From positions 1 to 43,853 of the IMG/VR virus record IMGVR_UViG_3300025018_000238: a stretch of DNA of 43,853 bases, one strand, 5' to 3'. Each line of letters starts with the position of its first letter. Position 1 is the stretch's first letter. The position numbers and the translations under genes are program-made. Shown here piece by piece: positions 1,154-42,303 of the stretch. Under the pieces are notes generated by a model, which saw only the letters and a list, made by a program, of their open reading frames with translations, was not told the DNA's origin and did not search any database. Origin of the DNA: a virus (taxonomy: Duplodnaviria > Caudoviricetes).

Positions 1154-1178
1154 GTATCGTCCTATCTTAGGACAACAC
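1154..1178. promoter_or_regulatory. 25-bp palindromic site, copy 1
   Basis: GTATC-GTCC-TATCTTA-GGAC-AACAC, in the divergent region between the leftward and rightward gene blocks. Confidence 0.85.
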
Positions 1179-1264
1179 TCAGAGCAGCTGACTTTAACCT
1201 GCACGTTAAACCGCGCACAGAAAAATCGCACACCCACTCCGACTTAAATATCATATATTCCAAC

Positions 1265-1293
1265 TTGCAAAAACCCGGAATCTATGCGATATT
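1265..1293 (+). promoter_or_regulatory. Possible sigma70-type promoter
   Basis: TTGCAA-N17-GATATT with a TGn extended -10 (tg at 1285-1286), upstream of the rightward genes. Confidence 0.3.
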
Positions 1294-1344
1294 GTCGCGT
1301 GGCCGGAACTCCGACCAGATCGCTCGCTCAACTTCTCTTACGTT

Positions 1345-1536
1345 ATGACCTCTGATTTCCAACAAGCAGTTTCCGTTTTGCCTACTACACAGCAGACTTC
1401 TTCTCGTCCGACTCCAGTCGATCGTGTGGTTGTTGTTTGTTCTATGCCGAATGTACAACGCACGCTGAAACGTTGTGCTAAACCTTTTCCGCTTGGTATG
1501 CCAGCACATTCGCAACGCCGCGGACTTTCGCTTTAG
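1345..1536 (+). CDS. Possible small hypothetical protein, 63 aa
   Basis: TTATG start context shared with other genes here; lies between the candidate promoter and terS; no homology recognised. Confidence 0.3.
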   Translation: MTSDFQQAVSVLPTTQQTSSRPTPVDRVVVVCSMPNVQRTLKRCAKPFPLGMPAHSQRRGLSL

Positions 1537-1559
1537 TCTCGTCTCTCTCTTCTTTGTTT

Positions 1560-2324
1560 ATGTCCGACAAACCGCTCACCGACAAATACGCTGAACTCCT
1601 CTACTGCCACGAGGAGTCACACCCGCTTGTCGACGTGCTTAACCACCGAGAAGCTGAAGCCGACGTTGCGTACGACAAAGCCGAACTCTGTGACGCTCCG
1701 TTGCAAAAAGGCGGGCGTATGGACATGGTTTCCACACTCGGCAATCGTTTCTCTTCTCCTGACCGCAAAGGAGCAGAAGCTAACGCACGTTACACCTTCG
1801 GAAACGACCGCGGTTTCGGTGACGACGGAGTTCCTTTCACCCACATCAAAGAGAAACCTTGGCACCGCGCGCTTGCGTATCTCGCAGCACAAGGACTTAA
1901 CGCACGTGAGCAATGTGAAAAGTTTGGCGGACAATTCGATGACCACACAAACCAATACATCGCAGGCAGCGGACAATACGCTTATTCCACAATTCTTCAG
2001 ATCAACCGTCAGCCGTGGTTCAAGCAGCGTGTAATTGACTCGTTGCGTGAAGCTGGTGCAGACATGCTTGGCGCGTGGCTTGAGTCTGAAGTAATGCCTT
2101 CACTCGAAACACTTAAAAACCTCCGCGACAATGCGTCTACGCCTGCGACTGTCCGCCTTGCGTCTTCACGTGAGCTTCTTGATCGTTTCTTGGGTAAGCC
2201 GACTCAACCGTACACACGGGAAACGGATGCCAAAGACCCTGAGAAGGAAGCTGCTGAACTTGAACAAGAAATCGCTCGGCTTTCAGCGGAAACTAAACCG
2301 CCGGCGACGTCCGCAGCGCAATAA
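1560..2324 (+). CDS. Putative terminase small subunit / HTH protein
   Basis: Upstream of TerL. KPWHRALAYLAAQGLNARE...YSTILQINRQPWF resembles an HTH; the C-terminal VRLASSRELLDRFLGKP and coiled coil are typical of small terminases. ATG at 1560 preferred over TTG at 1554. Confidence 0.6.
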   Translation: MSDKPLTDKYAELLYCHEESHPLVDVLNHREAEADVAYDKAELCDAPLQKGGRMDMVSTLGNRFSSPDRKGAEANARYTFGNDRGFGDDGVPFTHIKEKPWHRALAYLAAQGLNAREQCEKFGGQFDDHTNQYIAGSGQYAYSTILQINRQPWFKQRVIDSLREAGADMLGAWLESEVMPSLETLKNLRDNASTPATVRLASSRELLDRFLGKPTQPYTRETDAKDPEKEAAELEQEIARLSAETKPPATSAAQ

Positions 2325-2363
2325 CAATTAACCCTTCACTTATTCACTTCCGTTTATTCCGTT

Positions 2364-2633
2364 ATGTCACTCTATTCTCCATCTGAACCTATGCGCCAAG
2401 CTGCGTGTACTCCTTCTGGCGCTGACATCAGTTTCGTCGCAGGCCCAGACAACAAACCGCAAATCAACTGCCGTGAGATTTTCGTCGGCGGAACTGGCGA
2501 CGTCCGAGTCGCTACAGTCGACGGTACGATCGTTACCTACACCATTGCGGTAGTCCCTTTCATTCTCGCTGGCCGGTTTACAAAGATCTTCAACACTGGC
2601 ACCACAGCAACGAATCTCATCCGGCGTTGGTAA
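2364..2633 (+). CDS. Head spike base protein, RcGTA Rcc01079-like
   Basis: 89 aa with IFVGGTGDVRV...G..VTY...IL...TKIFNTGTTATNL, the pattern of this family. Confidence 0.7.
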   Translation: MSLYSPSEPMRQAACTPSGADISFVAGPDNKPQINCREIFVGGTGDVRVATVDGTIVTYTIAVVPFILAGRFTKIFNTGTTATNLIRRW

Positions 2634-2648
2634 CTGGTAGAGTAGAGC

Positions 2649-5359: not shown

Positions 5360-6985
5360 ATGGCAGACAAAGATTTACGTATTGTACAAGAACGTGGAGA
5401 CGGAAACTACGGTGAGAGTGTTGTTTCTGTACCAGCGGCACCAAACCAATTTCTTGGTTTTGACGACGAGGGTACCCCAATCACACGTGACGCCGAGGCC
5501 GTGCGCGCCGCCACCGGCACCGAGACCACCGCCCAGCTTGACGCCCGCGACACCGCCAACCGCGACCGCGCCAACCACACCGGCACGCAGGCTATCTCGA
5601 CGGTTTCCGGGTTGCAACCTGCGCTCGATGCGCTCAACGTCAGCGCGCATGAAGGCGGGGCGTATTTTGAGACGACTGGTGCGGCTGCACTCGCTGCGGG
5701 CATGATGGATTTTGGGACTGGCGATTTTGCCATCGTCATCGACCGGCTGGAGCTGGATGACTATACCCCAGCCACAGCTGGAGAGTTACTGTCAACACAT
5801 AGCGCGGGTAACAATCGGCTGGTTATCAGCCTGCTGCCCCTCGGCGTCTTGCGACTCGTATTTACAGACAATTCCGCCACAACGGCCAACTACGACATCG
5901 CCCCCACCACCGCGCTGGTGGACGGCACGCCCTACAGTATCGCGCTGGTGGCCGACCGCGACGGCAACGCAACCCTCTACGTGGACGGCGTGGCTAAAGG
6001 ATCAGTGGACATCTCTTCCGCATCCGACATCGACATCGGCAGCGGCAACACCAACGCAGGCGAGCTGCTGACGGATTCTAACCTGAGCGGCATTGTCTCG
6101 GGTCTGGCACCCTTCAACCGCGCACTCTCCGCCGCCGAAGCCGCCGCGCTCCACACTCAGGGACTGCTCCCGTGGCTGGCTGTGCATCCGGAGTATCAGT
6201 GGGCTCGGGACATAGCAGTAACCGGAAATACGTTAGTAAAATGGTTTGGAACGGGCACAATATCATCGGCGACAAATACATCTGCTGTCATCGATCCAGG
6301 CGCAAGTAGCCTTGCAATTTATCACAACATGTTAACCTGGTTACGGGCCAACCACGGTCAAACAGTCGCCGTAACGATGACAATATCCGGTATCGAAAGC
6401 GGCAGTATTCTGCTGAAAAAATTTAGTTCCGTCGGAGGGTCAGCATCCGTTACAACCGCATTATCAAATGGCACAAACACTTATTTTTTAACCGTAACAG
6501 ATGTAAGCGGATGGCTTCAGTTCTCGGTCAATTCTGTTGCGGGCGGGAGCTTATTGATCGACAAAGTAGTATTACTCGGCGCACTCGCCGCCCTCCCCAT
6601 GACAGACGGCGCAAACAGCGTCCTGCGCGACATCAGCACCAACCGCTCCGACATTCTGCTCAGCGAGACCGGCACCCAGCACCTGATCCCGCAGGTGGTC
6701 GGCTCCGTGCGCGGTGACAATCTCGACGCAACTGGCGGTGCGTATCTGCAACGGGCTGGAGACATCATCGATGCTGCCACCACGATAACAGGCGTGACCG
6801 TAGATGGTCGTTACGAGCCAGCTTCCGGCGCACAGGACACCACGTATCGCCGCATCCGCTATGTTACATCCGGCAGCGATGTTTTGATCCAGCGCAGCAA
6901 CGGCACAACGCATCAAACCATCGCGACTGTGACTCCGACCGCAACTGATGATTTCGCCCTCGTCGTCCACACCCAACGCATCTAA
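5360..6985 (+). CDS. Receptor-binding/fibre protein with phage tail repeat and LamG-like domain
   Basis: RANHTGTQAISTVSGLQPALD (phage tail repeat); LamG/concanavalin-like segment (DFAI...ATLYVDGV...FNRALSAAE); AAGGA upstream of the start. Confidence 0.8.
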   Translation: MADKDLRIVQERGDGNYGESVVSVPAAPNQFLGFDDEGTPITRDAEAVRAATGTETTAQLDARDTANRDRANHTGTQAISTVSGLQPALDALNVSAHEGGAYFETTGAAALAAGMMDFGTGDFAIVIDRLELDDYTPATAGELLSTHSAGNNRLVISLLPLGVLRLVFTDNSATTANYDIAPTTALVDGTPYSIALVADRDGNATLYVDGVAKGSVDISSASDIDIGSGNTNAGELLTDSNLSGIVSGLAPFNRALSAAEAAALHTQGLLPWLAVHPEYQWARDIAVTGNTLVKWFGTGTISSATNTSAVIDPGASSLAIYHNMLTWLRANHGQTVAVTMTISGIESGSILLKKFSSVGGSASVTTALSNGTNTYFLTVTDVSGWLQFSVNSVAGGSLLIDKVVLLGALAALPMTDGANSVLRDISTNRSDILLSETGTQHLIPQVVGSVRGDNLDATGGAYLQRAGDIIDAATTITGVTVDGRYEPASGAQDTTYRRIRYVTSGSDVLIQRSNGTTHQTIATVTPTATDDFALVVHTQRI

Positions 6986-6986
6986 T

Positions 6987-8066
6987 ATGAACGATTACCA
7001 ATTCACCCACGCCGATTTATCCGGCCTCCACTATCGCAAGGGAGTCAACGCCAAATCCGCCCCGCTGCCGTTTACCCCGCAGGACGGAGCCGAGTTTGAG
7101 GCATGGGACCCCGAGACCCGCACCCTGTCCTACTCGCTGCCACCACTGGAGGACGGCGACGAGCGCGACATCATTGATGTTGTTATTACTCAGGAGCAAA
7201 TCGCCGCAGGCCCGCAGGATGCCCCGGCACCTGTGCCACAGATTGTCTCTAAGGCGCAGCTTGACGCACGGGAAGTCACGCTTATTCGCCAGATCAAAGC
7301 AAAGCCGGAAGGTTACGCCACCATGACCACCATCAAGACAACTGGCGTGTCGATGGTAGTGAAACAGAGCGGCGCAACGGGTGTCTGTTACTCGATCAAC
7401 GGTGGAACACCTACCTATGTTGCGGGTGCTGTTAGTGTGAACGTCGCGCTTTCCGGTATTGTTGATCCAGACGGTTCGCCAACGGAAATCGCAGTATGGC
7501 CTGCGATCAGTGCGACGAGTGGTAGAGTTGGTGACTTGACTTACCTCAGCTGCGACAACAACAACCTCACCACTCTTGACGTGAGCGGTTTGACGGCGTT
7601 AACCTTCCTCGGCTGCTACAACAACAGCCTCACCACTCTTGACGTGAGCGGATTAACGGCGTTGACCAGCTTCGACTGCTCCGGCAACAACCTTACCACT
7701 CTCGATGTAAGCGGATTAACGGCGTTGACCAGCTTCAACTGCTCCGGCAATCCCAACTTGGCTGAAGTGACGGCTGTTGGATTTGCGGGAGCCAACCCTT
7801 ACGGAACCACGCATTACAATGCTAATTTCACGGGATGTGGCCTGACCACGGATGCCGTCTGGTCGATGCTGGATCAGTGCGCGAACGCCACCGATAATCC
7901 GTGCTTCATACAACTCGTTGGTAACCCCTGCGACAAAAATGATGGAGTAACCACACCCGAGGCAATGACGGACGGTGACACCTACACGGAATCCGACGTT
8001 CAGACGCTCCTCAACGCCAAAGGCTATTCTCTTGTTCTTTCTGACGCAACCCTAGCTCCAGCTTAA
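6987..8066 (+). CDS. Leucine-rich-repeat protein (21-aa bacterial LRRs)
   Basis: About 3.5 repeats of LTxLxCxNNxLTTLDVSGLTA; ATG at 6987 directly after the upstream stop, in frame with ORF 6948..8066. Confidence 0.8.
   Translation: MNDYQFTHADLSGLHYRKGVNAKSAPLPFTPQDGAEFEAWDPETRTLSYSLPPLEDGDERDIIDVVITQEQIAAGPQDAPAPVPQIVSKAQLDAREVTLIRQIKAKPEGYATMTTIKTTGVSMVVKQSGATGVCYSINGGTPTYVAGAVSVNVALSGIVDPDGSPTEIAVWPAISATSGRVGDLTYLSCDNNNLTTLDVSGLTALTFLGCYNNSLTTLDVSGLTALTSFDCSGNNLTTLDVSGLTALTSFNCSGNPNLAEVTAVGFAGANPYGTTHYNANFTGCGLTTDAVWSMLDQCANATDNPCFIQLVGNPCDKNDGVTTPEAMTDGDTYTESDVQTLLNAKGYSLVLSDATLAPA
7536..7750 (+). repeat. 63-bp imperfect tandem repeats encoding the LRRs
   Basis: Units start at 7536, 7599, 7662 and 7725; the last two share agcggattaacggcgttgaccagcttc(g/a)actgctccggcaa. 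Confidence 0.85.
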
Positions 8067-9378: not shown

Positions 9379-9978
9379 ATGAAAAACTACACAAAAATCC
9401 TACTCGCTGCTTTTGCAGTACTCACAGCATCTACGCTGTTTACCGGTTGCGAAACTGTTCGCTCCGCTGTCTATGATGAACAAATCGTCTCCTCTACCGG
9501 AACGCTTCCGGTTGACGCAGTTGAACTCACCCCCGGACAGTTCGTTGCTGTTACCGATCTCGAACCCGGATCGTTTTCTCCGCAGCAGGTAATCCCGGCT
9601 GGAACAGAAGTCACTACACAAACAGTCGAACTCGTTCCTTCCGCGGCAGTCCAAACCACACTCGATGTTGCGTCCTCTGTTGGTGGTTCTTGGGGCGGAC
9701 TCGTGGGACTACTCGCTTCCGGCGTCCTCGGTATATACGCAAAGACACAACGCAAACACCGCACAACAGCCGAAAACGTTAACGCCGCAGTCGTTCAAGG
9801 TATTGACGTCTTCCGTGACATCCTCGACCAAACTCCTCAAGGTGCTGTAATTGACGAAAAACTTAAAGCTGTGCTGCACGAACGTCAACTTGCGCTCAAC
9901 GTTGTCAGCGCAGTTGACAGTCTACTCAAGCGTTACAAAACCCCCACCAAACAACCCATTCAACTCGCCGCTAAATAG
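9379..9978 (+). CDS. Lipoprotein with internal TM helix (lysis-associated candidate)
   Basis: MKNYTKILLAAFAVLTASTLFTG-C lipobox; second hydrophobic segment WGGLVGLLASGVLGIYA followed by basic residues. Confidence 0.65.
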   Translation: MKNYTKILLAAFAVLTASTLFTGCETVRSAVYDEQIVSSTGTLPVDAVELTPGQFVAVTDLEPGSFSPQQVIPAGTEVTTQTVELVPSAAVQTTLDVASSVGGSWGGLVGLLASGVLGIYAKTQRKHRTTAENVNAAVVQGIDVFRDILDQTPQGAVIDEKLKAVLHERQLALNVVSAVDSLLKRYKTPTKQPIQLAAK

Positions 9979-10002
9979 TATCGTCCTAGCTTAGGACGAT
10001 AC
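9978..10002. promoter_or_regulatory. 25-bp palindromic site, copy 2
   Basis: GTATC-GTCC-TAGCTTA-GGAC-GATAC; perfect 12-bp inverted repeat at 9977..10003, just upstream of the portal gene. Confidence 0.9.
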
Positions 10003-15339: not shown

Positions 15340-15370
15340 GGTGCCGTCCTATCTTAGGACGGCACCTTTT
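15340..15370 (+). terminator. Probable intrinsic terminator after the capsid operon; also palindromic site copy 3 (15341..15365)
   Basis: GGTGCCGTCCTA-TCT-TAGGACGGCACC followed by TTTT. Confidence 0.75.
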
Positions 15371-29100: not shown

Positions 29101-29614
29101 CGGCCTGCGACCAAAGCAGTTAGCCGATATGCGTTTGCAACAACGTTTGATGCGAACCGCAAATGACGTAGCCACGAAAGACCGGCGCGAACAGCTTGGT
29201 GAAATGGCGGATAAACTTTTAGCCGATGATGTGGACACAGCACGTCAGATGGTTGAAGCGTACGCAAGTCAGACACCGTACACCGCAGACGAAGTTATGC
29301 GGAGTGTTGTTGACATGGCATTGGAACGTATGTTCCCGCGGGACTTTCTTGACGAAGGAACCAAAGCAAGTGCAGGACGTCGAGAACAGATTGCAGGAAG
29401 TTTCAACACACGGTTGCCACGTTTCAGTGAGCTTAAAGAAGAGGTCACAAAAAAGGCGCTGCGGAGTAAATTGTCCGGAGCGCCTGAAGAGTTAAGTCCG
29501 GTTGAAATGATCCGGGCTAACTTGATTGATGATTATATTAGTCAGAACCCGAACGTTCCTCGGACAGTTGCTCGGCAGGCTGTGAGTGAGCGGATGAAGC
29601 TGATGGGACTGTAG
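23165..29614 (+). CDS. Large ejection/internal virion protein, 2149 aa, with a zincin HExxH motif
   Basis: Last gene of the structural block; hydrophobic G/A-rich N- and C-terminal segments; TLAHEQFHG with downstream EEFLA. Confidence 0.75.
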   Translation: MNISDLLQNSQSLSASPSLSTQPNTLIGLQPQQQSIRSLLSQQSQQPKLQQPMRFGEIVDLKKLYDTQPQVAAMDLGEFARYMNQYDQKGRDFSLGTNPNFIKHTSSFVDDLFEATKIPAATGALTQAAAEMVGLDPKFGNDVGRDLPRGAVEVLSQAGWFFGPPGWAVAAAGLASAGSKGYTETDSVWAGAVDVAATAATPFVGMAGRTLGTNIAAKRIGGTLIKEGDKALRIAGPSTIGTRFGQAAVTRGTEEVAQLGLDAVSQALKGQNPFTPEALFANLISSTVDVVASGPAVKRLIDGKPTAARPFSTHAEQIQTQNVLQILDKQRRKFDEAVIEVDNTQAEQAGQRAARLRRTRQTERQERTRTTPTVVDRKQIQRVIDNLATAEPARSAPDVVAETKIVNQFVDELNARSDVPDFDAETRKALNLNPNGKFTSEGVLEFVQKMQRVHDEPVEKSLARLSDHLKDIESAASRRAAAERKAVDTQKKGKRNVDQLVEDPERIAEFNRIVQSLDDTQRDAIADAYARLGGILDTRAQTFALSAMQTAVLNWEKGGRKGDLGQKLKTATNDQAALRSAQKDRQRKKLVDQDVTKEEGVRTAEVETTGRELDEDRREAFVQRGREDGEMDVTDWSDKDAQRHADRLDAKYGVGAGKAYLFGLGEVRGSVRTDAGSAESTGQKAPSGPRPGQPLLAPTPPSGQKLSPRERMLWDWNKYAARAFEGSGLDTDIQLLYMDLGQRILLSFDEIDIPRIAALRQREEVVAAMGSVLGLNVPRGANDALMPKGRTLTRILGLTAEKVSDNKIMDGFIRVATLAHEQFHGMYNYLSRYRGNKKDILEKRTLLNRMEERAESLTVDERNDTLRFMYEYMIPKKLRNDTDINPVLREAAEDVEEFLAVFTETFSIALTMDKNARSKIQELKGHLAPEEVEFLQNQFRDLEQISRALSAFGKQSGVGERRMGQPEVNLGEFVEDFKALARTPEVLRKAQERLIKMNRFLDPQANVGRFHDQDELIRNVEDFFGDEDIKAKVSKSEQSLIKTALQKVFASDFRKFSETDQGIKPSFMTQAFGNPIQFALSVGDRIPIVRDLVANVYDKRSRADAILTDQNRVFMSRNLFGQLTSIANIPDKRLTPKQRLLKTAMGLVAQNPQAERAFSDIALRHNSERQNYTSPEDVMDIPSFARLESAERAQVWRLIEATKSMNTRAAQNIVQYSARQTGTMIAKFLMLQDPELRSADAQRQGMELQRKATELVARLNPQVQALLHGQVMRYTQDGVTKYVPLPQSKAEQIALRNQLVGDPTIDGRSVKAFQGSGLYRNKDLNNLHLRAVDQFANLLKSEGFDASIAQTVAATNAAHQVLTKVMDRPYFFTERRVGDYIVKYRRGEDENATIARRTEREANEAIAKLKKDPDVDPTSFVTSRKSQREKNSVAHYLNPTALRVFVELEKTAYEAAKAKHGKENADALFPDYTPGEASLQKALKERTRAFLRLQEQKPGREFTNLWESAIDYSTAVAYSLANSETRNNAELMLREPEFRDHPHVKKLMDEWVKNETDSAHKEYPGLKSGIFTYFLGFNLSSALIESSQTFLTTMPQITRLTGSFRESGAIIGRASRTVAQAYNARGFMTPGKLKFDDPELQIAFSRAIDEAVVSYGALDDVLLSPMELDTINSRRLTKGLLPVTAKEAVKNTAHLYAKTARSIYSVTTGTNARIAFVAGFEIGKKQGLQGDALYAFATEFTRSTQFSGGKPNRPFGLRYLGNAQGAASVLLSLSNFMMSSLHMMARLFNDSLREAKTQGVFSNLSEAGGARKAFMQMMGTQAFFAGAMGMPLAGFMVKTLEEIFGKEIYAATREGITQLMGDDEELGGLVSDIAMNGVPSAFLGVDVGSRFSLGSMFGLTAYQGFSMGGFLGAGGSIVNNVYEGLSMATQGDVGGAFQKALPQAFKNPLELMRNNGQFMDQKGELLYEPNFGEKLAYSIGLRPKQLADMRLQQRLMRTANDVATKDRREQLGEMADKLLADDVDTARQMVEAYASQTPYTADEVMRSVVDMALERMFPRDFLDEGTKASAGRREQIAGSFNTRLPRFSELKEEVTKKALRSKLSGAPEELSPVEMIRANLIDDYISQNPNVPRTVARQAVSERMKLMGL
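24699..24723. promoter_or_regulatory. 25-bp palindromic site, copy 4 (intragenic)
   Basis: GTATC-GTCC-AGAGTTT-GGAC-GATAC inside the 2149-aa gene (encodes RIVQSLDDT). Confidence 0.8.
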
Positions 29615-29935: not shown

Positions 29936-30724
29936 TTATTTTTCGTTATGCCACCGCACAAAACGTGGGTGACGTAAAAGCCCTGACTTAAACTGTCCGC
30001 TGCCTTCGACCTCGCACGTGCGACCGAGATAGCTGTCTTGGTTTTGCCAGATTTCGTGACGTTCTTCGTCAGTGAGCCCGCCGCCGATTGTCGTTTCTTT
30101 GGTATCGTCCAAAGATAGGACAGCACGCAGCGCGCCGAGCGAGCCTGCGTATTTGCCTTGCCCTTCGACGAAACCAACCACGCGGAAGTCAGTAGTGACG
30201 ATGTGTTTTTGTCGAATAAGCGGTTCGTCCCACGTTGAGTTGAGACTGCGAAAGACAACACCTTCGTAGGTGTCATTGTTGACAACTTGGTCACGCCAGA
30301 AGTTTGCGAACGCAGAAACTGGAAGGGTCGGAACTAAAACAAAACTGTCAACCGCGAAACGTTCGACGATTTGGTTTGCAAGCTGCCACCGTTCAAGGTA
30401 TGGTTTGTCGTTGTAGCCCCAGACGTCAAAGACGAAAAGCTTTTCGTATAGTTGTTCGTCCTGTGCACGCTCAGTGCCGAACATGAACTCACCAACAAGC
30501 GTAACGGTTGTGATTAGTTTCATTGAGTTCGGCAGAATTGCGGAGTGTTTAAGTTGATTTGAACGTGAGTAGTATTGAGCTACGACAGTCGTTTCGTCGA
30601 CTGGAGTGATTTCGCAAGCGCACCAGATTCCGTCGTATTTCGGTTGGAAGTGAGTTGCTTTGTGTTCGAAGACGGCAAGTTGGAGGTCACCGTCGATGTA
30701 GTTTTGGCGTTGGTATTCTGACAT
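29936..30724 (-). CDS. lig: ATP-dependent DNA ligase
   Basis: QPKYDG (motif I), VGEF, FVFDV, YEGVVFR, OB domain EGQGKYAGSLGAL...IGGGLTDEER...LRHPRF; ATG at 30724. Confidence 0.92.
   Translation of the reverse strand: MSEYQRQNYIDGDLQLAVFEHKATHFQPKYDGIWCACEITPVDETTVVAQYYSRSNQLKHSAILPNSMKLITTVTLVGEFMFGTERAQDEQLYEKLFVFDVWGYNDKPYLERWQLANQIVERFAVDSFVLVPTLPVSAFANFWRDQVVNNDTYEGVVFRSLNSTWDEPLIRQKHIVTTDFRVVGFVEGQGKYAGSLGALRAVLSLDDTKETTIGGGLTDEERHEIWQNQDSYLGRTCEVEGSGQFKSGLLRHPRFVRWHNEK
30102..30126. promoter_or_regulatory. 25-bp palindromic site, copy 5 (intragenic)
   Basis: GTATC-GTCC-AAAGATA-GGAC-AGCAC inside the ligase gene (minus strand encodes VLSLDDT). Confidence 0.8.
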
Positions 30725-30755
30725 AAGTGGAAACGCGGACAAGCGTTGGGTTGAG

Positions 30756-32000
30756 TTATTGTGGTGGTTGTGCTGCTTTTGAGTTAAGCACGATAACGTG
30801 CTCTTGCGTCTTTGGGTTTTGCTTACGTGAAATAACTTTAGCGGACTGAAGGTGCAGAAGTATTTCGCGGTAGTCCTGTGGGCGTACAAACGAAAAGGCT
30901 TTGATCCGGAGTTGTGTTTCAGACAGCATTTGATCTGGTGCTTTGGACAAGATTTCAACAAGACGTGCTGCTTGTGCGTTGAGTGGGTTCTCGCCGACAC
31001 CATAGAACAAAGAGATCATACCGGTTTGAACTTTGTGAAGCAAACCTAATGCGAATTCTAAGTGCGGTTTAGTGAGTACCATGTCGTTGCCTTCGGATAA
31101 CGAGATAAGCATACCGAGTTTGAACATCTGGATATGCATGGTTGAGTTAAAGCCTTGGACGATTTCGTCTGTTGGTGCTTTGCGTTCCATGTACCATTGG
31201 TAGTAGAAGTCGTATGCGTCTTGTGAAATGGTGAACGGACCAGTTAATTTAAGTATTCGTTGCGCACCACGCTCAAGCCGAGTCCACGCTTCCTTTTGTG
31301 CTTCGGTGACCTTGGGGAAAGGGACACGTTTTGTTTCTTCTCGTTCAAAGATAAACATACAGCGCCGAGCGAAACCGCCTGTGAGAACTTCCTTCTTAAG
31401 GTATGAATAAATCCACGACGGGGTGGTGCAGCCCAGTAGGTTAAGACAGGGCGCAGTGATGTAGTCGTTACCTTTATTTTTTGTTTTAACTTCATAGACA
31501 GGTTCATCATATATTGTTGTGAGAAAGTCAACCATCTGCTCTGCGTTGAAGCCGAAGAAGTTTGAGAGTTCTGTTACGCAAATGGTTAAGGGTGTCCAAA
31601 CGATTGGCTTTTTTGTTTTTGGGTCAACGATCTGACGGCGGTAACCAGCTTCGTCACCTTTGCCTGCCATGTCTAGACAGATGGATTCACGTGTTTGTGC
31701 TTCGGCGGACAGCGGCACGGTTTTGACTTCGCGTAAAAGACGTTTGCACAAAGCCATTGCTGTGGTTTTCTTAACCCCCGGAGGACCGACGAGACACACG
31801 TAAATGTTTGGTAAGATTTTAATATGGCCGAGGTCGAACCAAACTTTGCCTGACGCAAACGAAGCAAGCGCAACGAACGCAGAGAACGTGTGGAACATCT
31901 CAGGGGATTCGGACTCACCAACCGCTTCGAGGTAGTCTCGAAGGAAGGATGTTGGCGGGGACGACGCGGGTTGAGATTCAGTTGTTGTGGTCGTGGTCAT
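30756..32000 (-). CDS. DUF3987-like P-loop ATPase/helicase
   Basis: ESPEMFH...PNIYVCLVGPPGVKKTTA (Walker A), TELSNF, FLTTIYD, PCLNLLGCTTP, GGFARR and a winged-helix-like C-terminus. Confidence 0.75.
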   Translation of the reverse strand: MTTTTTTESQPASSPPTSFLRDYLEAVGESESPEMFHTFSAFVALASFASGKVWFDLGHIKILPNIYVCLVGPPGVKKTTAMALCKRLLREVKTVPLSAEAQTRESICLDMAGKGDEAGYRRQIVDPKTKKPIVWTPLTICVTELSNFFGFNAEQMVDFLTTIYDEPVYEVKTKNKGNDYITAPCLNLLGCTTPSWIYSYLKKEVLTGGFARRCMFIFEREETKRVPFPKVTEAQKEAWTRLERGAQRILKLTGPFTISQDAYDFYYQWYMERKAPTDEIVQGFNSTMHIQMFKLGMLISLSEGNDMVLTKPHLEFALGLLHKVQTGMISLFYGVGENPLNAQAARLVEILSKAPDQMLSETQLRIKAFSFVRPQDYREILLHLQSAKVISRKQNPKTQEHVIVLNSKAAQPPQ

Positions 32001-32397: not shown

Positions 32398-34992
32398 TTA
32401 GATTTCGTTAGGAAGTTCTTTCCAGTTCTCACCCCAACCACCATCGGCTGGAATATTAACTGGAATGTCGTGAATTGTAATGTCGATGCTGAACCAGTGC
32501 TTGAGTTTAGTCTTAGCCCAGTCACGGAGTTCTTGTGGCCATTGACCGCACAACGCATCGTGGACTGTGAGTATCGGTTCGACAATTAGCGATCCGTTTG
32601 GCCGACGATTCTCTGGGTCGTTGTACAAGTTGAGCAACGCAATGTTGGTGACGTAGGTTGTGTTCGCTTGTGGTTCATGCGCCAGAGCGTTACGGATTAC
32701 CTCGCCTTCGATTTGTGATCGGTTACGGATTGATAAGAACTTACGACGATGACCGTTAGCTGAGTCTAAACGACCAGTTTGTTTAAGCTGTTCAGCAAGA
32801 TATTTACGACGCGCGTTTACGTTGTAGAGTTTAGAGTACAACGTTTGCAGACGTTCACCAGTTGCGTTGTCAAGATCGATCGGTTCGCCTTTACCTGTGC
32901 TAACGATGTTCTTGATTGAGTCTTTGAGAATGGTTTTACGTAGCAGCGGAACCTCCATGCCGTAGTTGGTTCCGTGCTGCACACGCTTTGAGCACAAGTA
33001 CATAATAGCGTCACGTCCTTCGGAGTCGATTTCGTGTTGACGCGATTTCCAGTCTTCGGTTGTCCACGTAGAGACTTCACCGAGACCGTATTTTAATGCG
33101 AGCACAATGTTCTTAGAAGGTTTGATCTTATTAAGTAGATGGTGAAACATCTGCGGATAACCGACAGCTTTTAAGTCTGCAGCAACAGTCCACGCGTCCG
33201 CACCAGAAAGGTCGTACTGAAAGAAGTCATAACCGTCGTCGGCAGTGAACATCTTACGCACAGCTTTGGTTTGGTTCTGTAAGTTCGTGCCGAGGTAAAG
33301 CTTTGTTTGTTTAGTCGTGAGTTTAATTGAACCGTCGTCGAGGAGTGCGATGTTCGCTTTAGTTTTACGTGTCATGACGTTAGTTTCAGACGAAGCTGAA
33401 CGTCCGGTGTCGGGACCAACGTTTGTGAAGTTACAACGTATGCGCCCGTCATTAAACGGAATCACCTTTTGCAAGTCGGAGAACCGTGTACGCAGTTGGA
33501 TTAAACGCAGAATCTCAAGGAGTTCTTTGTTTCCAGTTTCAATGTACAGTTGGTCAAGCGCGGCTTCGTCTGCGGTGAGTTTACTACCTTGAGGTGTGCG
33601 TTTCTTTTTCGGTTTAAACTTCGGACTGATCGTTGCAAGATACGCGGCATGATGATAAGCCGGAGTAATTTTCTTCGGAGGCGGACCGATGTGTCCGTAG
33701 AGCCACGCAAGTTTGTGCGCTGTAGACTTAGGGTTGAACAACGCTCCGACGATCTTGTTAACCTTTGCTTGCTGATCAACGATTTGAGAGTAAACTTCTG
33801 CGGTTTGTTTTTTCCATTCAGTCGGGTTGATACGACACCCACGGACGGACATATACGTGTAAGGGTAAACAATCTTCATGTTGAACCGATAGTGGTCGTA
33901 CGAAGGTTGGTGCGCTTTGAGTATCGGCAGCATTTGGTAGTACGATTCGAGCGTAACCGCTGAGTCTTTACCGCAGTAGATTCTGTGCGTGTCATCGTCG
34001 TCGACAGTACGGTCGGACTTATAGTACGGTTCGTCTGTGTAGATACTTGCGACAGTCCCAAGGTCTTTACTTGTTTCGCAAAGTAGTTCCCAGTGCATGA
34101 ACATAGTGTCATCGCAAAGGTTTCGGACAACGATGCCGTGGTTCCACAGCAAACAGAACAATTCGTAATAACAGTTGTGTGCTAGTTTCGGAACGGCAGG
34201 GTCAGACAAAAGTTCAGATACTGCTCGCCAGACACGTTGCTCGTCGTCGGGATCGGAAAAGTAATTGCCGTTAATAAACCTGGCTCCGTTACGGAAAGGT
34301 ACGGTAAGAACTTCTGTGGGACTATTAGTAAAAGATATGCATTTAACGCCCGCGGCTTCAACACCACCCTCGATGTCGAACGCCACAGGAGCTTGTACTC
34401 GCCGGAGTGAATTAAGGAATTCAACACAATCATTAGCTGTTGGTCGGAAGTGTATCCGACGGTTCGGTAAGGCATAGCTTGGAGTTCGACCAATGCGGAG
34501 AGCTTTCTTAACGTCGAAGAGGAAGAGGTAAGTTTGCGATACGGCACGGATTAAATTGCTAGGGTGAAGAGTAGCGACGCACCAACAGTTAGCAGCAGTA
34601 GAGAAGAAAGGACTACCACGATAACTGTGGATTGAGACATCCACGCCCCCGTTAAGGGCTCGTACCGCAGCAGCGCCACAACATAAGATGACGTCAGGAG
34701 CATATAGTGTAAGGTCTTTAACAAGACGATTGATGCCGGACTGAATTTCAGGTCCAGACCATTGATAACTGGAGAGGTTGTTGTTAGGCGGGCGGAGTTG
34801 ACAAGCGTGACCGAGAAAGCAATGGTCAAAACTAACGCCGCACTGGGACAGAATTGAACGTAAGACAAGACCAGACGTGCCGGCAAACGGTTGTCCGGTT
34901 TGTTCTTCGGACACACCAGGGGCTTCGCCCACGATTGCTAGTCGGGGCGAAGCTGTGTGTGCTGGAGGGAAGCGGTTTGGTATAATCGGCAT
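32398..34992 (-). CDS. polA: Family A DNA polymerase with N-terminal uracil-DNA glycosylase-like domain and 3'-5' exonuclease
   Basis: UDG family-4-like IVGEAPG..EE..GQPF.G.SG...RPP...TLHPS; Exo motifs FDIE, AHN, YCGKD; TGRS.SS...NLQN; motif A DLSGADA, motif B KRVQHGTNYG, motif C VHDAL. Confidence 0.93.
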   Translation of the reverse strand: MPIIPNRFPPAHTASPRLAIVGEAPGVSEEQTGQPFAGTSGLVLRSILSQCGVSFDHCFLGHACQLRPPNNNLSSYQWSGPEIQSGINRLVKDLTLYAPDVILCCGAAAVRALNGGVDVSIHSYRGSPFFSTAANCWCVATLHPSNLIRAVSQTYLFLFDVKKALRIGRTPSYALPNRRIHFRPTANDCVEFLNSLRRVQAPVAFDIEGGVEAAGVKCISFTNSPTEVLTVPFRNGARFINGNYFSDPDDEQRVWRAVSELLSDPAVPKLAHNCYYELFCLLWNHGIVVRNLCDDTMFMHWELLCETSKDLGTVASIYTDEPYYKSDRTVDDDDTHRIYCGKDSAVTLESYYQMLPILKAHQPSYDHYRFNMKIVYPYTYMSVRGCRINPTEWKKQTAEVYSQIVDQQAKVNKIVGALFNPKSTAHKLAWLYGHIGPPPKKITPAYHHAAYLATISPKFKPKKKRTPQGSKLTADEAALDQLYIETGNKELLEILRLIQLRTRFSDLQKVIPFNDGRIRCNFTNVGPDTGRSASSETNVMTRKTKANIALLDDGSIKLTTKQTKLYLGTNLQNQTKAVRKMFTADDGYDFFQYDLSGADAWTVAADLKAVGYPQMFHHLLNKIKPSKNIVLALKYGLGEVSTWTTEDWKSRQHEIDSEGRDAIMYLCSKRVQHGTNYGMEVPLLRKTILKDSIKNIVSTGKGEPIDLDNATGERLQTLYSKLYNVNARRKYLAEQLKQTGRLDSANGHRRKFLSIRNRSQIEGEVIRNALAHEPQANTTYVTNIALLNLYNDPENRRPNGSLIVEPILTVHDALCGQWPQELRDWAKTKLKHWFSIDITIHDIPVNIPADGGWGENWKELPNEI

Positions 34993-35415: not shown

Positions 35416-36960
35416 TTAAACCAAACGCACGTTTTCGCCAGGGAACTGACGAGCGTATAACTCAGTCAACTTCTCGCGGAGTTGGTTATAGTGGTTGGTG
35501 TCCATCTCACTTCCGACAACTTTAAACCCTTCGGTTAGCAAAGCGTATGGCATTGAGCCAGTGCCAACGAACGGGTCGCAGATTGTCTGTCCGGGAATGG
35601 CTACTGCGTTAGCAAGCCACCGCCAAAGCGTGAACGGTTTGACAAACGGGTGGCCGTGGAACTGTTTGCGTTCGGCTTCGTTAGACGCAGTGTGCACACA
35701 GGTGTGTTGCGGCTTCGCAAGCACCGCGTTACCTTTACGACACAGCACAGCGCACTCAACGGTTTTCGTGAAGTTCTTTGTCGCTGCTTGGTTCTTGCAG
35801 GTGTGAGTCTTAACCCAGATCAACGGCCAGCGTTGAGTCTTGAAGCCAGACTTCTCAGCCAACATACGACAGTGGTTGAAGTGTTCAAAATCGCACCAGA
35901 AGATACAGAACCCACCGTCACGAAGTATGCGATAGAAGTTGTCAATCCACACAGGGAGGTCATTAAGGTTGGACTGTACGTCGTGCGTGTGTGCGACGTT
36001 GTCGATGTTCTTCATACCAGTTGTGCCTTGTGACAGATGATCCATCTCGATTGCGTAAGGCGGATCAGTAATGATATGGTCAACGGATTCGTCATCGAAA
36101 GCGTCTTCCATCTTGCAGTTAAGGAACCGAGAACTGAAGTCGATTGTACGTATCGGTCGTTCGGGTTGCGACGCAGTAATCGCTTCGCCAACTGTGCGCG
36201 GTTGACTGTCGTCAGTTGGTGCGCCGAAAAGTTGATTCAGCACGTCATCGTTGAGCGAAGAACTCTTTGCGTCTCCGGACGGTTGTGTCGGCGGGGAAAC
36301 CTTTTCGAACTGGCTAATGTCGACTGACGAGTCAGTGTTAATCTCGGCAAACTTTGTCGCAGCTTCGTTTGCTTTGCGCGCGGTAATCAGACGCCAAGCA
36401 GACGTGAGGTTTTCGCACGCCCAGATTTCTTTATCGCCTGCGTTAAGCAGCTTTGCCACACGCGTGACGTAGTTCACATGCGACTTGCTGAACCGAGGTC
36501 CGAGAAGTTTTGCGGTCTCACGCACGCCCCAAGACTTAGAGTCGAGTGTTGCTTCACGAGTTTTGATCTGGTGCACACGTGCTATACCGAGAGTAGTCTC
36601 CTGCCATGTGAGGTTTTCACGTTGCAGGTTCTCCTCAAGTTCAAGCGTGGACAAAGTCGAGCCGTCAAACGTGAGCATCTGACGGAAATGAACGTTCTCT
36701 TCGAGTGTTCCGGTTTCAATAAACGCTTCAATCGTTGGGTGGATTGACGACGGGATATCGTCGTCAGGCAACGCAGCGTTAATGATCGCCTGCAACGCAG
36801 ACTTACGACGTCCGCCGGCAATAAGCGTTCCGTTTTCGTCAAGCACAATGGGTTGGATCAACCCGTGTGTCATGATGCTTACGGCAAGCTGTTCGATGTT
36901 GTGATACTCCTGCCGTTGCCGGTCGAGTTCTTTAACTTCAGAGAGTTGAATTGTCTGCAT
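35416..36960 (-). CDS. ParB-N/HTH fused to an amino-methyltransferase (beta class, DPPY)
   Basis: RQR...LAVSIMTHGLIQPIVL...LIAGGRR, ELEENLQRENL, HTH VRETAKLLG..SKSHV; IITDPPY, HPFVKP and ICDPFVGTGS in beta order. Confidence 0.88.
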   Translation of the reverse strand: MQTIQLSEVKELDRQRQEYHNIEQLAVSIMTHGLIQPIVLDENGTLIAGGRRKSALQAIINAALPDDDIPSSIHPTIEAFIETGTLEENVHFRQMLTFDGSTLSTLELEENLQRENLTWQETTLGIARVHQIKTREATLDSKSWGVRETAKLLGPRFSKSHVNYVTRVAKLLNAGDKEIWACENLTSAWRLITARKANEAATKFAEINTDSSVDISQFEKVSPPTQPSGDAKSSSLNDDVLNQLFGAPTDDSQPRTVGEAITASQPERPIRTIDFSSRFLNCKMEDAFDDESVDHIITDPPYAIEMDHLSQGTTGMKNIDNVAHTHDVQSNLNDLPVWIDNFYRILRDGGFCIFWCDFEHFNHCRMLAEKSGFKTQRWPLIWVKTHTCKNQAATKNFTKTVECAVLCRKGNAVLAKPQHTCVHTASNEAERKQFHGHPFVKPFTLWRWLANAVAIPGQTICDPFVGTGSMPYALLTEGFKVVGSEMDTNHYNQLREKLTELYARQFPGENVRLV

Positions 36961-37249: not shown

Positions 37250-37278
37250 GACGAAAGAAATAAAGGTTTGGCAAATGA

Positions 37279-37303
37279 GTATGGTCCTATCTTAGGACAG
37301 CAC
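37279..37303. promoter_or_regulatory. 25-bp palindromic site, copy 6
   Basis: GTATG-GTCC-TATCTTA-GGAC-AGCAC, intergenic, upstream of the block leading to the ParB-MTase and polymerase. Confidence 0.85.
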
Positions 37304-37874: not shown

Positions 37875-37988
37875 ATGTTTTGTTGTGCGTTTATGGGTGA
37901 GTGCACTTCTCTGTTATTGTTACTGTTATTTTGTTTTGTTTTTGTGACAGATGTGTCACAAAGTGGTTGCCGCGGAGCGCTACAGAAG

Positions 37989-39371: not shown

Positions 39372-39379
39372 AATGCGAG

Positions 39380-40177
39380 TTATTTAGTCTCCTTTCCAAA
39401 GTACGGAGCAAGCAGTGTCCACACTTCGTTTGGTTTTTTGTTGGTCACGTCAAGCGTCTCGGTTGTAATGCCGAGTGAGTTGCCAATCTGGTGAAGGTTC
39501 TTCGGAGCGACACGAATAAGGTAAGTAGTCTTGCCTTGTTTGTCACGCCCGAACTCGGTGCGCCAAACGTCGGTGAAGAACCCTGCGAGGTTGTTCTTAA
39601 GTGAACCGGGAACCATAGGACGGTAGCCGATGACTCCGCCGGTGTCGGTGGTGATTGTGTCCTCGTGGCAGGTGACCACGAAAGTCTTTCCACTGGTGCG
39701 ACCAGCCGTGACGAACCGAGTCATGTAGTTCTTGAACGGCTGCCAGTGTGCTTGTGCCATGAGTTCCATGTCACCAACTTTGAGAGTTTTGAAGTTCTCT
39801 TTCGGCGCAGCGGCAAGGATACGTGCCATGAGAAAGTCAACGAGTGGCGAGAGCGAGTCAATGAGAATAGTTTTGACCGCCGGGTTATCGCGTGCAAGTT
39901 TCATAAACTCCATGCAAACGTCCCAGCGTTTGTTCATCGGACGTTCAGTTCCGTCTTCATTGACATTCGGGTCAAAGTAAAAGTAATCGAAGTCGGGTTC
40001 AGTAGCTTTCGCACGAGCAAGCGGTCCAGCGAAGTTCTTATCGCAGTCGAGTACTGCAATAGGAGACTCGAAGCCGAGACACGCTGTGGTTTTGCCGGAC
40101 TTAGGTTGTCCGATCATGAGCAGACCGAACGATTCGAGTCGATCGAGCTGCGGTTTATGTTGCATTTGTATTGGCAT
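39380..40177 (-). CDS. AAA_24 ATPase (Sak4-like recombinase)
   Basis: LMIGQPKSGKTT, VLDCDK, TILIDSL, VVTCHE, P.VPG...LAGFFTDVW. Confidence 0.82.
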   Translation of the reverse strand: MPIQMQHKPQLDRLESFGLLMIGQPKSGKTTACLGFESPIAVLDCDKNFAGPLARAKATEPDFDYFYFDPNVNEDGTERPMNKRWDVCMEFMKLARDNPAVKTILIDSLSPLVDFLMARILAAAPKENFKTLKVGDMELMAQAHWQPFKNYMTRFVTAGRTSGKTFVVTCHEDTITTDTGGVIGYRPMVPGSLKNNLAGFFTDVWRTEFGRDKQGKTTYLIRVAPKNLHQIGNSLGITTETLDVTNKKPNEVWTLLAPYFGKETK

Positions 40178-40220
40178 AAGTAAAAAGCACGAATGTGCGT
40201 AGAGTGTGGAGCGTTAACAG

Positions 40221-40505
40221 TTAAGGCGTGATAGTTTCGTTTTCGATTTGTTGAATAACAAACTCAATGATGTGTGAGTCTGGCGTGTTGTCGAAGTCGT
40301 CACCAAAGAAGTGTTCGATGTTGTCTCCGTCAAGTTCGAACTCAAAGTTTGCATGAAAGAAATACGGTTTGTATTCACGTGGCCGTGAGTACTCTTTCGG
40401 GTCGTCGTGCTGGAGTGGGTTCCAGTGAACGGTAACTTCAAGTTGCTTTTCTTGTGGTGGGTACCACAAAGTGTTGTGCGTTTTGTGCATGAGTGCGGCG
40501 GGCAT
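40221..40505 (-). CDS. Hypothetical protein, 94 aa
   Basis: Acidic ORF in the operon; no family recognised. Confidence 0.6.
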   Translation of the reverse strand: MPAALMHKTHNTLWYPPQEKQLEVTVHWNPLQHDDPKEYSRPREYKPYFFHANFEFELDGDNIEHFFGDDFDNTPDSHIIEFVIQQIENETITP

Positions 40506-40507
40506 GG

Positions 40508-40912
40508 TTAGAAGTAAACAGCTGGATCGTCAGGAATTACTGGGTTAGAAAGAGCCTTCGACTTCGGTTGTTGTTTAACTGCCGTCTTTTTAACCACGGT
40601 TTTCTTCGGAGACTTTTGCGGCGTTTTGTTTGGTTGATCCAAACACAAACTACACCAATCGACATTTTCTTCAACCCAGTCAAGATAATCAGGGTCTTCG
40701 GCGAGCACTTGACGAACGGTTGCTCCACGGTGCTTACCGAAGGTTAAGACGTCGTTGAGACCAAAGATAACAATCTCGTCGGTTTGCGGTCGCTGCGGTT
40801 GCGACTGCGTTTGCTTCTTCGGTGTCGGCGAAGGCGTGGCAGAAGCAGAACGTATTGCGTCTGCGATGTTGTTTAACGCATCGCAGAGTTGTTTAAATTC
40901 TGTAGGATTCAT
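40508..40912 (-). CDS. Protein with DUF3820/ExoX-C-like module
   Basis: LTFGKHRGATVRQVLAEDPDYLDW motif flanked by low-complexity K/P/Q regions. Confidence 0.7.
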   Translation of the reverse strand: MNPTEFKQLCDALNNIADAIRSASATPSPTPKKQTQSQPQRPQTDEIVIFGLNDVLTFGKHRGATVRQVLAEDPDYLDWVEENVDWCSLCLDQPNKTPQKSPKKTVVKKTAVKQQPKSKALSNPVIPDDPAVYF

Positions 40913-40935
40913 GACTGTTCGTCTGGGTTAGATGT

Positions 40936-42030
40936 TTAACCGTCAATGAAACTCCGAATCGAATCCAACGCGTCACGTGGGATGTTCGGACTGGTGACAA
41001 CTGGTTTCTTCTCCAGCGTTTGCTCGTCAGCTGTGGGGTCCCACGTGACGTCACGATATTCACCAGAATACAAAACCATTTCGCGGTTCTCAAGCGGGAG
41101 TTGACAGACGTTGTAGTAAGTGCAGCGACCAAACCGGTGCTTGCACGCAGTGGTACGCATCGGGAAGTTACCGCGCTGCAAATCGTGCAGCATGTCTCCG
41201 ATGAGAAGAATGGTGTTTTGTTTCCACTCTTCGATGTGACTGTCGTCAAAGTAAACAATTTGACGTTCAAAGAATGTGTTGCAAGCAATGGTTTTTGTCG
41301 GAGGTCGGCAACCGATTACGTTAATTCGTGCACCAAGCACGTTCTCACCGGTGAGTTGACGACCAGCCCAAACGTAGCCTTTCATTTGGCCGCCGGTAAA
41401 GTACTCATCAAAGAGTCCGGCACCACCAACTGAAGAAGTTTTGTGGTCGGTGACAAGGATTGTCCCGTCTGCTTCACGTGTGATGAGGTCAATACGTCCG
41501 GTGTAGAACACAGGCAGGCGAGTCACAACTTTGAACTCTTTGGTCACAAGATCAACTGTGGTGATCGGCGTTGTGAGTTCAAACGTGGTCAGCGGCAAAG
41601 CAAACGCAAGTTCGCAAGCGATGGTGTCATCGTGCGTGGTGAGCACGTTAAACGTTTCAGTCGGGTACTCTTTGTTGTATTTTGCGACTGTCGCACAGGC
41701 GTTGTCGAGCGTGCGCCACTCGCCGTCAGGTTCCGCGCCTTTGTTTGCCCACTCGTCTGCGAGAAGCTGTTGCATCTGGTCAGTGACACCCGCTGAACCT
41801 AGCAGCACGTTGCTTCCGGTGTAGCGGAGTTCAAGTGCCTTGTGCATCCGACGGCCGTACTCAAGTGCCCATGCGGTTGAGTTGAACTCACGACGATGGA
41901 TGATACGATATTCACCTTTGCGATTGCACTCGACAAAGTTAGTGAGGGTTGAGTTATCGGCGAAGAATACTCCGTCGATAACGGGGAGCGCGAGAGACGT
42001 GCCAGGTGCGGATGGTAATGTGTAGTCCAT
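40936..42030 (-). CDS. PD-(D/E)XK (RecB/Cas4-like) exonuclease
   Basis: DNSTLTNFVEC, YG..MHKALE, CELAF, YTGRIDLI...VTDHKT, QMKGY, C-terminal C...FGRC.Y..VC cysteine cluster. Confidence 0.88.
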   Translation of the reverse strand: MDYTLPSAPGTSLALPVIDGVFFADNSTLTNFVECNRKGEYRIIHRREFNSTAWALEYGRRMHKALELRYTGSNVLLGSAGVTDQMQQLLADEWANKGAEPDGEWRTLDNACATVAKYNKEYPTETFNVLTTHDDTIACELAFALPLTTFELTTPITTVDLVTKEFKVVTRLPVFYTGRIDLITREADGTILVTDHKTSSVGGAGLFDEYFTGGQMKGYVWAGRQLTGENVLGARINVIGCRPPTKTIACNTFFERQIVYFDDSHIEEWKQNTILLIGDMLHDLQRGNFPMRTTACKHRFGRCTYYNVCQLPLENREMVLYSGEYRDVTWDPTADEQTLEKKPVVTSPNIPRDALDSIRSFIDG

Positions 42031-42067
42031 AATGTGCGTACGTGATAAGCGTTAAGACTAAACGTTT

Positions 42068-42247
42068 TTAACACGACCAAGTTTGAATCCGCGAAACGCG
42101 AACGCACGTCGTGATTTGTTCGGGCTGCTCGCACAACCACGACGTGCGTACACGTTGGCGCAGTTTACGTTGGTTAAGTTTTTTGCCTTGTGTGAAAAAG
42201 TCAGCAGGCGAGATGTGATACGGGTTGTTTGTAGTTCTTGTTGGCAT
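42068..42247 (-). CDS. Small hypothetical protein, about 59 aa
   Basis: TTATG start, with context CGTTATGCCAACA identical to that of 43698; basic protein. Confidence 0.4.
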   Translation of the reverse strand: MPTRTTNNPYHISPADFFTQGKKLNQRKLRQRVRTSWLCEQPEQITTCVRVSRIQTWSC

Positions 42248-42278
42248 AACGTTGGCGTTGTTTTTTTTGGTTGATTGC

Positions 42279-42303
42279 GTATCGTCCAAGGATAGGACGA
42301 TAC
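42279..42303. promoter_or_regulatory. 25-bp palindromic site, copy 7
   Basis: GTATC-GTCC-AAGGATA-GGAC-GATAC, intergenic. Confidence 0.85.

Follow-up and report, generated by a model that had tools for sequence, protein, structure and literature searches.

What could a 25-bp palindrome be doing at seven places spread over an entire phage genome, two of them inside genes? We address this question for the virus record IMGVR_UViG_3300025018_000238 (Duplodnaviria; Caudoviricetes), whose whole stretch of 43,853 nucleotides is hereafter called the window. From comparisons with related phages, we conclude that the seven palindromes are very probably parS-like docking sites of a protein encoded by the phage itself, in which a ParB-type DNA-binding portion is fused to a DNA methyltransferase. 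By analogy with other ParB-family proteins, the docked fusion likely slides along DNA as a clamp, and methylation of the phage DNA in cis is, in our judgment, more likely than not its main purpose.

The palindrome array in the window

A first-pass annotation, made from the sequence alone, had listed seven copies that keep the pattern GT-N3-GTCC-N7-GGAC-N3-AC, and we recovered all of them at the same coordinates and with the same letters. The pattern has seven exact matches in the window and none in 100 dinucleotide shuffles. With two mismatches permitted, one extra match appeared (12833; 1.7 expected). The weight-matrix scores of the seven copies ranged from 33.7 to 39.2 bits, and the runner-up place in the window scored 1.1. 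The seven palindromes are a real feature of this genome. Contigs from two sequencing runs span 24000–43692 with 0 and 7 substitutions, none within the sites; these differences are too few for a selection test.

The start-to-start distances between copies are 8824, 5363, 9358, 5403, 7177, and 5000 bp. Because bases 5–130 repeat 43728–43853 (a 126-nt overlap), the record is circular, and the gap over the join is about 2.6 kb, as had been estimated. Compared with random placement under a 300-bp minimum-gap null, the copies are spaced more evenly (p = 0.0098). Both intragenic copies (24699 in a plus-strand gene, 30102 in a minus-strand gene) encode SLDDT in one shared frame, which agrees with the first-pass description; in that frame the consensus site would hold TAG, and TTG stands there in both intragenic copies. 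Likewise, a run of T follows only the copy at 15341, which may double as a terminator. A sigma-70 promoter scan of 36900–43853 gave five matches against 3.6 expected, and none of these was located at a site.

Arrays in related phages

We searched two sets of relatives, 31 virus records reached through the capsid (of 35 virus records) and 30 reached through the fusion (of 41). Arrays were found de novo with a fixed 25-bp geometry and relaxed seeding, tandem repeats being present in two records (G005 and G013). The maximum score of the shuffled controls was 34.6 at full length and 30.9 at 21 kb (n = 40 each), and the window array scored 116.6. A dispersed array of the same geometry occurred in 53 of the 61 related records. 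It exceeded all shuffled controls in 29 of the 31 records of the first set, the two others being fragments of 18 and 25 kb, and exceeded the control in 24 of the 30 second-set records and in nine of 26 shorter loci. The outer GT...AC was frequent among the arrays, not universal, and the core was phage-specific: GTCC in the window, TATC in G003, TGTC in G006, GTTC in G007, GGTC in G014, and GGCT in G019. Because the cores differ, the weight matrix of the window finds few sites in relatives. The exact window motif had 31 single matches in viral contigs, which is about chance level, and the record of a distant capsid relative with one such match (L002) contained no array. A single-protein locus search with the capsid gave no match.

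We examined spacing in 41 genomes, comprising the window, G001–G020, and 20 second-set records of at least 39 kb with a score above 45. The median number of sites per genome was nine, the median largest gap was 8.7 kb, and in 26 of the 41 genomes the sites were more evenly spaced than random under the same minimum-gap null. Nearly half of the sites (190 of 394) lie inside open reading frames (ORFs) of at least 120 aa, a count that takes in spurious ORFs, and 17 sites, at many positions, fall in the giant gene; 15 of the 21 genomes examined have such sites. SLDDT was not found in related ligases (0 of 15). Since site positions vary among relatives and SLDDT does not recur, the sites arise anew in the DNA, whereas their presence and spacing are kept. 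The first-pass annotation had named conservation of the intragenic copies in relatives as a check, and in that literal form the check fails: neither positions nor core letters are shared, although the array and its geometry are. Its wider proposal, a genome-wide array of sites for a dimeric protein under selection at the DNA level, agrees with these results.

Five second-set records (G038, G046, G051, G060, and G063) share the replication module and the array, and blastp gave no match in them to the terminase large subunit, portal, or capsid of the window; this suggests, as far as sequence comparison goes, that their head module has been swapped.

Of six GenBank phages whose capsid is related, three lack the fusion, and none of these three has an array. 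Capsid matches plus a profile revealed the fusion in three named phages. Desulfofustis phage MD01 (L432, OP947158.1) has nine sites with a GTCC core as in the window and a Lys at fusion residue 159 (alignment by eye); Microcystis phage Mel-JY34 (L434, PP438425.1) has five or six wider sites; and Vibrio phage VS-ABTNL-3 (L431, MF497422.1) has four or five evenly spaced, even-centered palindromes.

Covariation between the fusion and its candidate sites

We compared 4,571 columns of 15 core proteins with 12 site positions in 24 genomes (54,852 tests). The best pair was residue 159 of the fusion, the first of the recognition helix in its helix-turn-helix (HTH), with site base 7 (z = 12.0; next, 7.0). 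In 57 arrays, Gln at this residue went with A (9/9), Arg with G (9/9), and V, L, I, F, A, N, or T with T (21/21), and base 7 was mixed for Lys, His, Tyr, and Ser. A prediction fixed in advance was correct for 19 of 24 scorable new arrays, whereas a constant guess of T would score 14 (permutation p = 5e-5); nine more new arrays carried residues without a prediction. Without L310, whose protein is identical to that of G014 over the columns compared, the tally is 18 of 23. A second putative contact was Arg147: 20 of 21 arrays with this residue have G at base 6, compared with 6 of 35 for other residues. A BLOSUM-based scan of 4,532 tests placed this pair first, and the window conforms to it (R147, G6). 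When the HTH and linker were left out of the tree, the four traits gave 3, 5, 7, and 9 independent pairs, with no wrong-way pair for any of them.

Column 159 had an entropy of 3.55 bits, more than any other HTH-region column listed. Its residue in the window, K159, is aligned to Noc Q158 and hence to Caulobacter ParB R173. According to PMC7383237 (papers with PMC numbers are cited here from excerpts), ParB R173 bonds to G, and the corresponding Noc residue, Q158, bonds to A. Since column 159 aligns with the Noc Gln and shows the same Arg–G and Gln–A pairing, the phage series appears to follow a structurally solved code. The covariation, the alignment with Noc, and the family-wide arrays together favor two suggestions of the first-pass annotation, namely that the palindromes are parS-like loading sites and that the ParB-methyltransferase is their binder. 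These comparisons lend strong support to binding by the fusion.

The ParB-methyltransferase fusion

The fusion was present in all 20 near-complete first-set relatives, and the small ORFs 42656..43036 and 43039..43698, which had been candidates for the DNA-binding protein, were each found in one of 31. Its N-terminal portion shows the motifs of the ParB-CTPase fold (GGRRxxA at 49–55; E107, E110, N111, and R114): G49, R52, E107, and N111 were invariant in 56 of 56 proteins, and R114 was kept in 55. The Pfam ParB_N score of the window protein was 23.5 bits against a curated cut-off of 26.3, which three of the four relatives scanned exceeded. The N-terminal domain (NTD) and HTH align with Noc over profile positions 6–196 (E = 4e-17, sequence profile). 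Among the matches listed, Foldseek on the full model returned methyltransferases only; the likeness to ParB and Noc rests on sequence profiles. Similarly, in tblastn of the fusion against GenBank phages, the 60 records listed, of 303, matched in the methyltransferase half only, and a search with the N-terminal 200 residues gave no match. The C-terminal domain has DPPY ahead of an S-adenosylmethionine (SAM)-binding FxGxG motif on a Rossmann fold, and its catalytic and SAM-binding motifs were kept in about 50–54 of the 56 proteins.

The fusion contains no ParB C-terminal dimerization domain. A homodimer was nevertheless predicted, with a score of 0.73 (best control, 0.00) and an interface in the methyltransferase domain, within residues 357–452. 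Of the solved pairs, 20 of 30 attained the score mark used, as did one of 23 single chains. The prediction runs agreed in at least 94% of contacts, with a predicted local distance difference test (pLDDT) value of at least 59. The pass may come from the likeness of this domain to solved beta-class methyltransferase dimers. In the AlphaFold model, linker residues 216–259 are flexible (pLDDT < 50).

A possible mechanism and points against it

We propose that a fusion dimer would bind each site through the HTH, and that its N-gate would then close on a nucleotide, presumably CTP as in ParB, Noc, and KorB. The methyltransferase dimer, as modeled, could stand in for the ParB C-terminal dimerization domain and close the ring. 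The closed clamp would leave the site, slide over the neighboring few kilobases, and methylate the phage DNA in cis as it goes. The even spacing and the occurrence of sites inside long genes would be accounted for because a clamp of limited range needs a loading site every few kilobases. The step we hold least firmly is that sites every 3–9 kb serve genome-wide methyl coverage. Taken as a whole, the explanation that the fusion docks at the array as a dimer, clamps, probably slides, and methylates phage DNA in cis seems to us moderately likely.

We are evenly divided over a more specific form of this explanation, in which modification would be self-addressed: the genome would carry a private 25-bp address every few kilobases, intragenic where needed, and the methyltransferase would act only after a clamp gated by nucleoside triphosphate (NTP) has loaded. 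If this is true, the mark would be confined to the phage's own genome, the address and the helix that reads it would co-evolve by a simple code, and reprogramming of this code could allow chosen domains of kilobase size to be marked.

Several observations weigh against the proposed binder or its proposed action. On the side of recognition, the tree-independent pairs are few, with sign-test p values of 0.25, 0.125, 0.06, and 0.03 (only R147/G6 at 0.03), and the residue classes of the first scan were chosen after the alignment had been inspected. The window's own Lys159 is the weakest predictor (T in three, G in two, and C in one of six), and five of the 24 predictions were wrong (G038, G061, G068, G070, and G074). 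In the BLOSUM-based scan over 57 arrays, the pair of residue 159 and base 7 came only fifth among base-7 columns. In the 33 new arrays it was outside the top five, with non-HTH columns in the lead, which we attribute to kinship. In Mel-JY34, which has Gln, the wider site breaks the Gln–A rule in the standard register, and the array of VS-ABTNL-3 is borderline in score. Additionally, six of the 30 second-set records have an intact-looking fusion and no array above control at this geometry, although two of these six score about 50–57 at other spacer lengths.

On the side of action, G002 keeps nine sites whereas its ParB has no recognizable methyltransferase domain. The nucleotide step is also questioned by other systems: some ParB-fold fusions bind ATP rather than CTP (PMC12704722), and a phage ParB that helps in DNA modification can do without its NTP-binding residues (PMC13229309), as far as the excerpts describe them. 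Finally, palindromic 4- and 6-mers are still avoided in these genomes, GTAC most strongly, with a mean log2 observed/expected of −1.89 over the 41 genomes; because this avoidance persists, blanket protection from restriction is unlikely.

Two details belong beside these points. The ParB of G002 (L194:2857-4092, plus strand) consists of the NTD and HTH with an unrecognized C-terminal domain, and a separate D12-class adenine methyltransferase is encoded nearby (L194:6901-7587, plus strand). GTAC counts are near zero in G002, G020, and G063, and GTAC is not among the three most depleted 4-mers of the window; its strong depletion across much of the family may reflect a shared host restriction enzyme or the target of the methyltransferase.

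Alternative explanations

The main rival to cis methylation is regulation of the kind known from KorB. Here the same protein would clamp at the same sites, but as dispersed operators that regulate or time transcription or organize the phage DNA, with the methyltransferase secondary or serving only as a dimerization module. The density of sites is similar to that of the twelve OB sites over a 60-kb plasmid (PMC13768133, excerpt), and intergenic positions account for five of the seven sites in the window, with site 6 flanked by a terminator-like hairpin (37337–37363) and the run of genes that includes the fusion. The retention of sites in G002 and the persistent avoidance of restriction sites also fit such regulation. 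Conversely, about half of all sites lie within ORFs at unconserved positions, and in 36 genomes the distance from the fusion start to the nearest site varies between −10.8 and +2.8 kb. The methyltransferase motifs are retained in nearly all members, and no conserved KorA-like partner was seen among the window proteins, for which no KorA profile search was made. We regard this alternative as unlikely, yet as the one to be taken most seriously.

Use of the sites as parS centromeres, by which an episomal phage genome would be partitioned or localized via host ParA or SMC, is improbable. The ParB fold with intact NTP motifs and the ParB/Noc-type HTH would suit this role. However, ParA (PF13614) was found in none of 40 relatives nor in the window, whereas 14 of 14 control genomes were positive. 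The protein also begins directly at the ParB fold and so lacks an N-terminal extension that could hold a ParA-binding peptide, and tyrosine integrase (PF00589) was found in none of the 40 relatives. Canonical parS sites cluster, whereas the phage sites are dispersed rather than gathered at one locus.

There is similarly little likelihood that the fusion acts as a static dimer, binding the sites and methylating or otherwise acting only at or beside them. The flexible linker would let a tethered enzyme reach nearby DNA, and some ParB-fold fusions bind other NTPs or need none; nevertheless, the Box II and III residues are nearly invariant, and even spacing over several kilobases is what a finite sliding range would be expected to select for.

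The remaining readings, also raised in part by the first-pass annotation, are single-strand hairpins (terminators, N4-type promoters, or priming signals), packaging or ejection marks, recombination sites, and operators for a different phage or host protein; as a group they are very improbable. The palindromic shape would suit hairpins, and a few copies behind capsid genes do carry T tails and extended stems. At variable positions, however, the arms were less complementary than in the re-paired null (0.457 against 0.513), with z = −4.8 at positions 3–5 and flanks at null, and only 31 of 395 sites have a T-rich tail, which tells against extrudable hairpins. In the giant protein, no DxDGD or NADFDGD RNA-polymerase motif was found. 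A role as packaging or ejection checkpoints was not upheld, as arrays and fusion persist in the five second-set phages with another head module and in a distant group without a detectable TerS relative. Recombination sites are suggested by the 7-bp spacer, the length of lambda-type att cores, and are countered by the lack of PF00589 in the relatives. No column of any other core protein, the primase and polymerase included, neared the ParB signal, which argues against both a different binder and replication priming.

As a separate observation on site symmetry, the two arms of a site were less alike than random half-site pairs of the same genome (395 sites, z about −4); asymmetry is therefore a consistent property of the sites, which may be directional.

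Comparison with known systems

Recognition resembles that of ParB-parS, Noc-NBS, and KorB-OB, and by analogy the clamp action is probably alike. The arrangement is neither a ParABS system nor a KorB regulon, since defining features of these systems were looked for and were absent. With ParB-parS and Noc-NBS, the phage system shares the NTD and HTH, a palindromic site for a dimer, and the Arg–G/Gln–A rule at the start of the recognition helix. Noc sites are dispersed, like the phage array. The ParB/Noc site is a 16-bp even palindrome, whereas the phage site is 25 bp long with an odd center and a 7-bp spacer. The fusion further differs from ParB and Noc in having a DNA methyltransferase as its C-terminal domain, in lacking ParA, and in a specificity that varies from phage to phage.

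KorB-OB of plasmid RK2, as described in the excerpt of PMC13768133, is alike in that a ParB-family protein of a mobile element loads through an HTH at about a dozen palindromic sites over a 45–60-kb replicon. Between plasmids, OB keeps both its sequence and its position, whereas the phage core and positions turn over. KorB also has IncC (ParA) and KorA/TrbA as partners and no enzyme domain, in contrast to the phage family with ParA in 0 of 40.

The same domain pair as in the fusion (PF02195 and PF01555) is known from phage ParB-N6N4-methyltransferase fusions, which PMC12704722 describes as frequent in phages and enriched in phages and prophages. The excerpt of that paper gives no DNA target or mechanism for them; here, candidate sites and a recognition rule are available. 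ParB-like proteins have also been tied to phage DNA modification through ParB-dependent thymine dioxygenases (PMC13229309) and methyltransferases of ParB-terminase loci (PMC4738411, with related remarks). In the excerpts, these ParBs are without a DNA-binding domain or belong to packaging loci, whereas the phage fusion has an HTH, a place in the replication module, and a site array. PMC13229309 states the "directing" of modification machinery by ParB as an unconfirmed idea. The C-terminal domain of the fusion resembles the beta-class methyltransferases CcrM, M1.HpyAVI, and M.RsrI in fold, motif order, and, as predicted here, dimerization; unlike the proposed site-loaded fusion, these enzymes find their targets by their own recognition domain.

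In the open-access literature, we found no description of such sites. The excerpts of the pink-berry methylome papers (PMC9296519 and PMC10370329) contain no methylation data for MD01, and those of PMC12373910 and bioRxiv 10.1101/2024.03.22.586370 mention ParB fusions and are otherwise not relevant.

With these results, the fusion gains a candidate site and a residue–base rule that can be tested by one or two residue swaps, and MD01 and Mel-JY34 are named phages with the same arrangement. The idea that ParB directs DNA-modifying enzymes thereby becomes directly testable. If methylation does spread from the sites, a loading address and a catalytic motif would share the task of targeting, in contrast to restriction-modification systems and orphan methyltransferases. 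This would be a new way of telling self DNA apart from non-self DNA and possibly a tool for domain-wide methyl marking. In addition, the natural series of helix–site pairs is a resource on the evolution of HTH specificity.

Genome context

The window is a circular 43.7-kb podophage genome with a portal and capsid of the SU10 type, a terminase, and a 2149-aa protein, which from its size and position is likely a virion or ejection protein. Genes on the opposite strand encode a nuclease, a Sak4-like ATPase, a Pif1 helicase, an SSB-like protein, the ParB-methyltransferase, a family A polymerase fused to a uracil-DNA glycosylase (UDG), a DUF3987 primase-helicase, and a ligase, whose true start is probably the Met at 30724. 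The coordinates are collected in Table 1.

Table 1. Sites, genes, and protein domains discussed in the text, in window coordinates
Feature	Position	Strand	Remarks
Site 1	1154..1178		Intergenic; upstream of terminase-region genes
Site 2	9978..10002		Flanked by a lipoprotein-like ORF and the portal gene, whose ATG is at 10040
Site 3	15341..15365		Downstream of capsid genes; extra paired bases lengthen the arms, followed by a T run
Site 4	24699..24723		Within the 2149-aa gene, codons 512-520
Site 5	30102..30126		In the DNA ligase gene; covers codons 293-301 if counted along the called ORF
Site 6	37279..37303		30 bp before the ATG at 37249 (-)
Site 7	42279..42303		Upstream of the PD-(D/E)XK nuclease gene (-)
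2149-aa gene	23165..29614	+	Holds site 4; sites of relatives at other positions of the gene
ATP-dependent DNA ligase gene	29936..31003	-	Holds site 5
ParB-methyltransferase fusion, 514 aa	35416..36960	-	Pfam ParB_N + N6_N4_Mtase; probably binds all seven sites
ParB N-terminal NTP-binding fold, residues 10-114	36619..36933	-	Box I-III residues G49, R52, E107, N111, R114
Helix-turn-helix	36442..36525	-	AlphaFold helices 146-153 and 159-173; R147 tracks site base 6, K159 base 7
Beta-class N6-adenine/N4-cytosine methyltransferase domain, residues 293-494	35479..36084	-	DPPY 299-302; SAM-binding motif 462-468

Other features of the genome are of separate interest. The family A DNA polymerase (32398..34992, minus strand) carries the UDG-like domain at its N-terminus and has homologues in every near-complete relative. 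A 38-A run at the joined ends (43703–43740 and 1–130) is followed by short repeated words, and assembled contigs break there; the run may mark a genome terminus or origin, and long homopolymers occur in many relatives, not in all. In ORF 6948..8066, three 63-nt repeats at 7536–7750 encode leucine-rich repeats; the product of this ORF, which adjoins a LamG-domain protein, is likely a tail or receptor-binding protein. The capsid relatives are uncultured and 33–53% identical. Two of them (P0093 and L111) are found in metagenome-assembled genomes of Verrucomicrobiae/Verrucomicrobiia, one on a 508-kb contig, which is a weak hint at the host group and possibly at integration.

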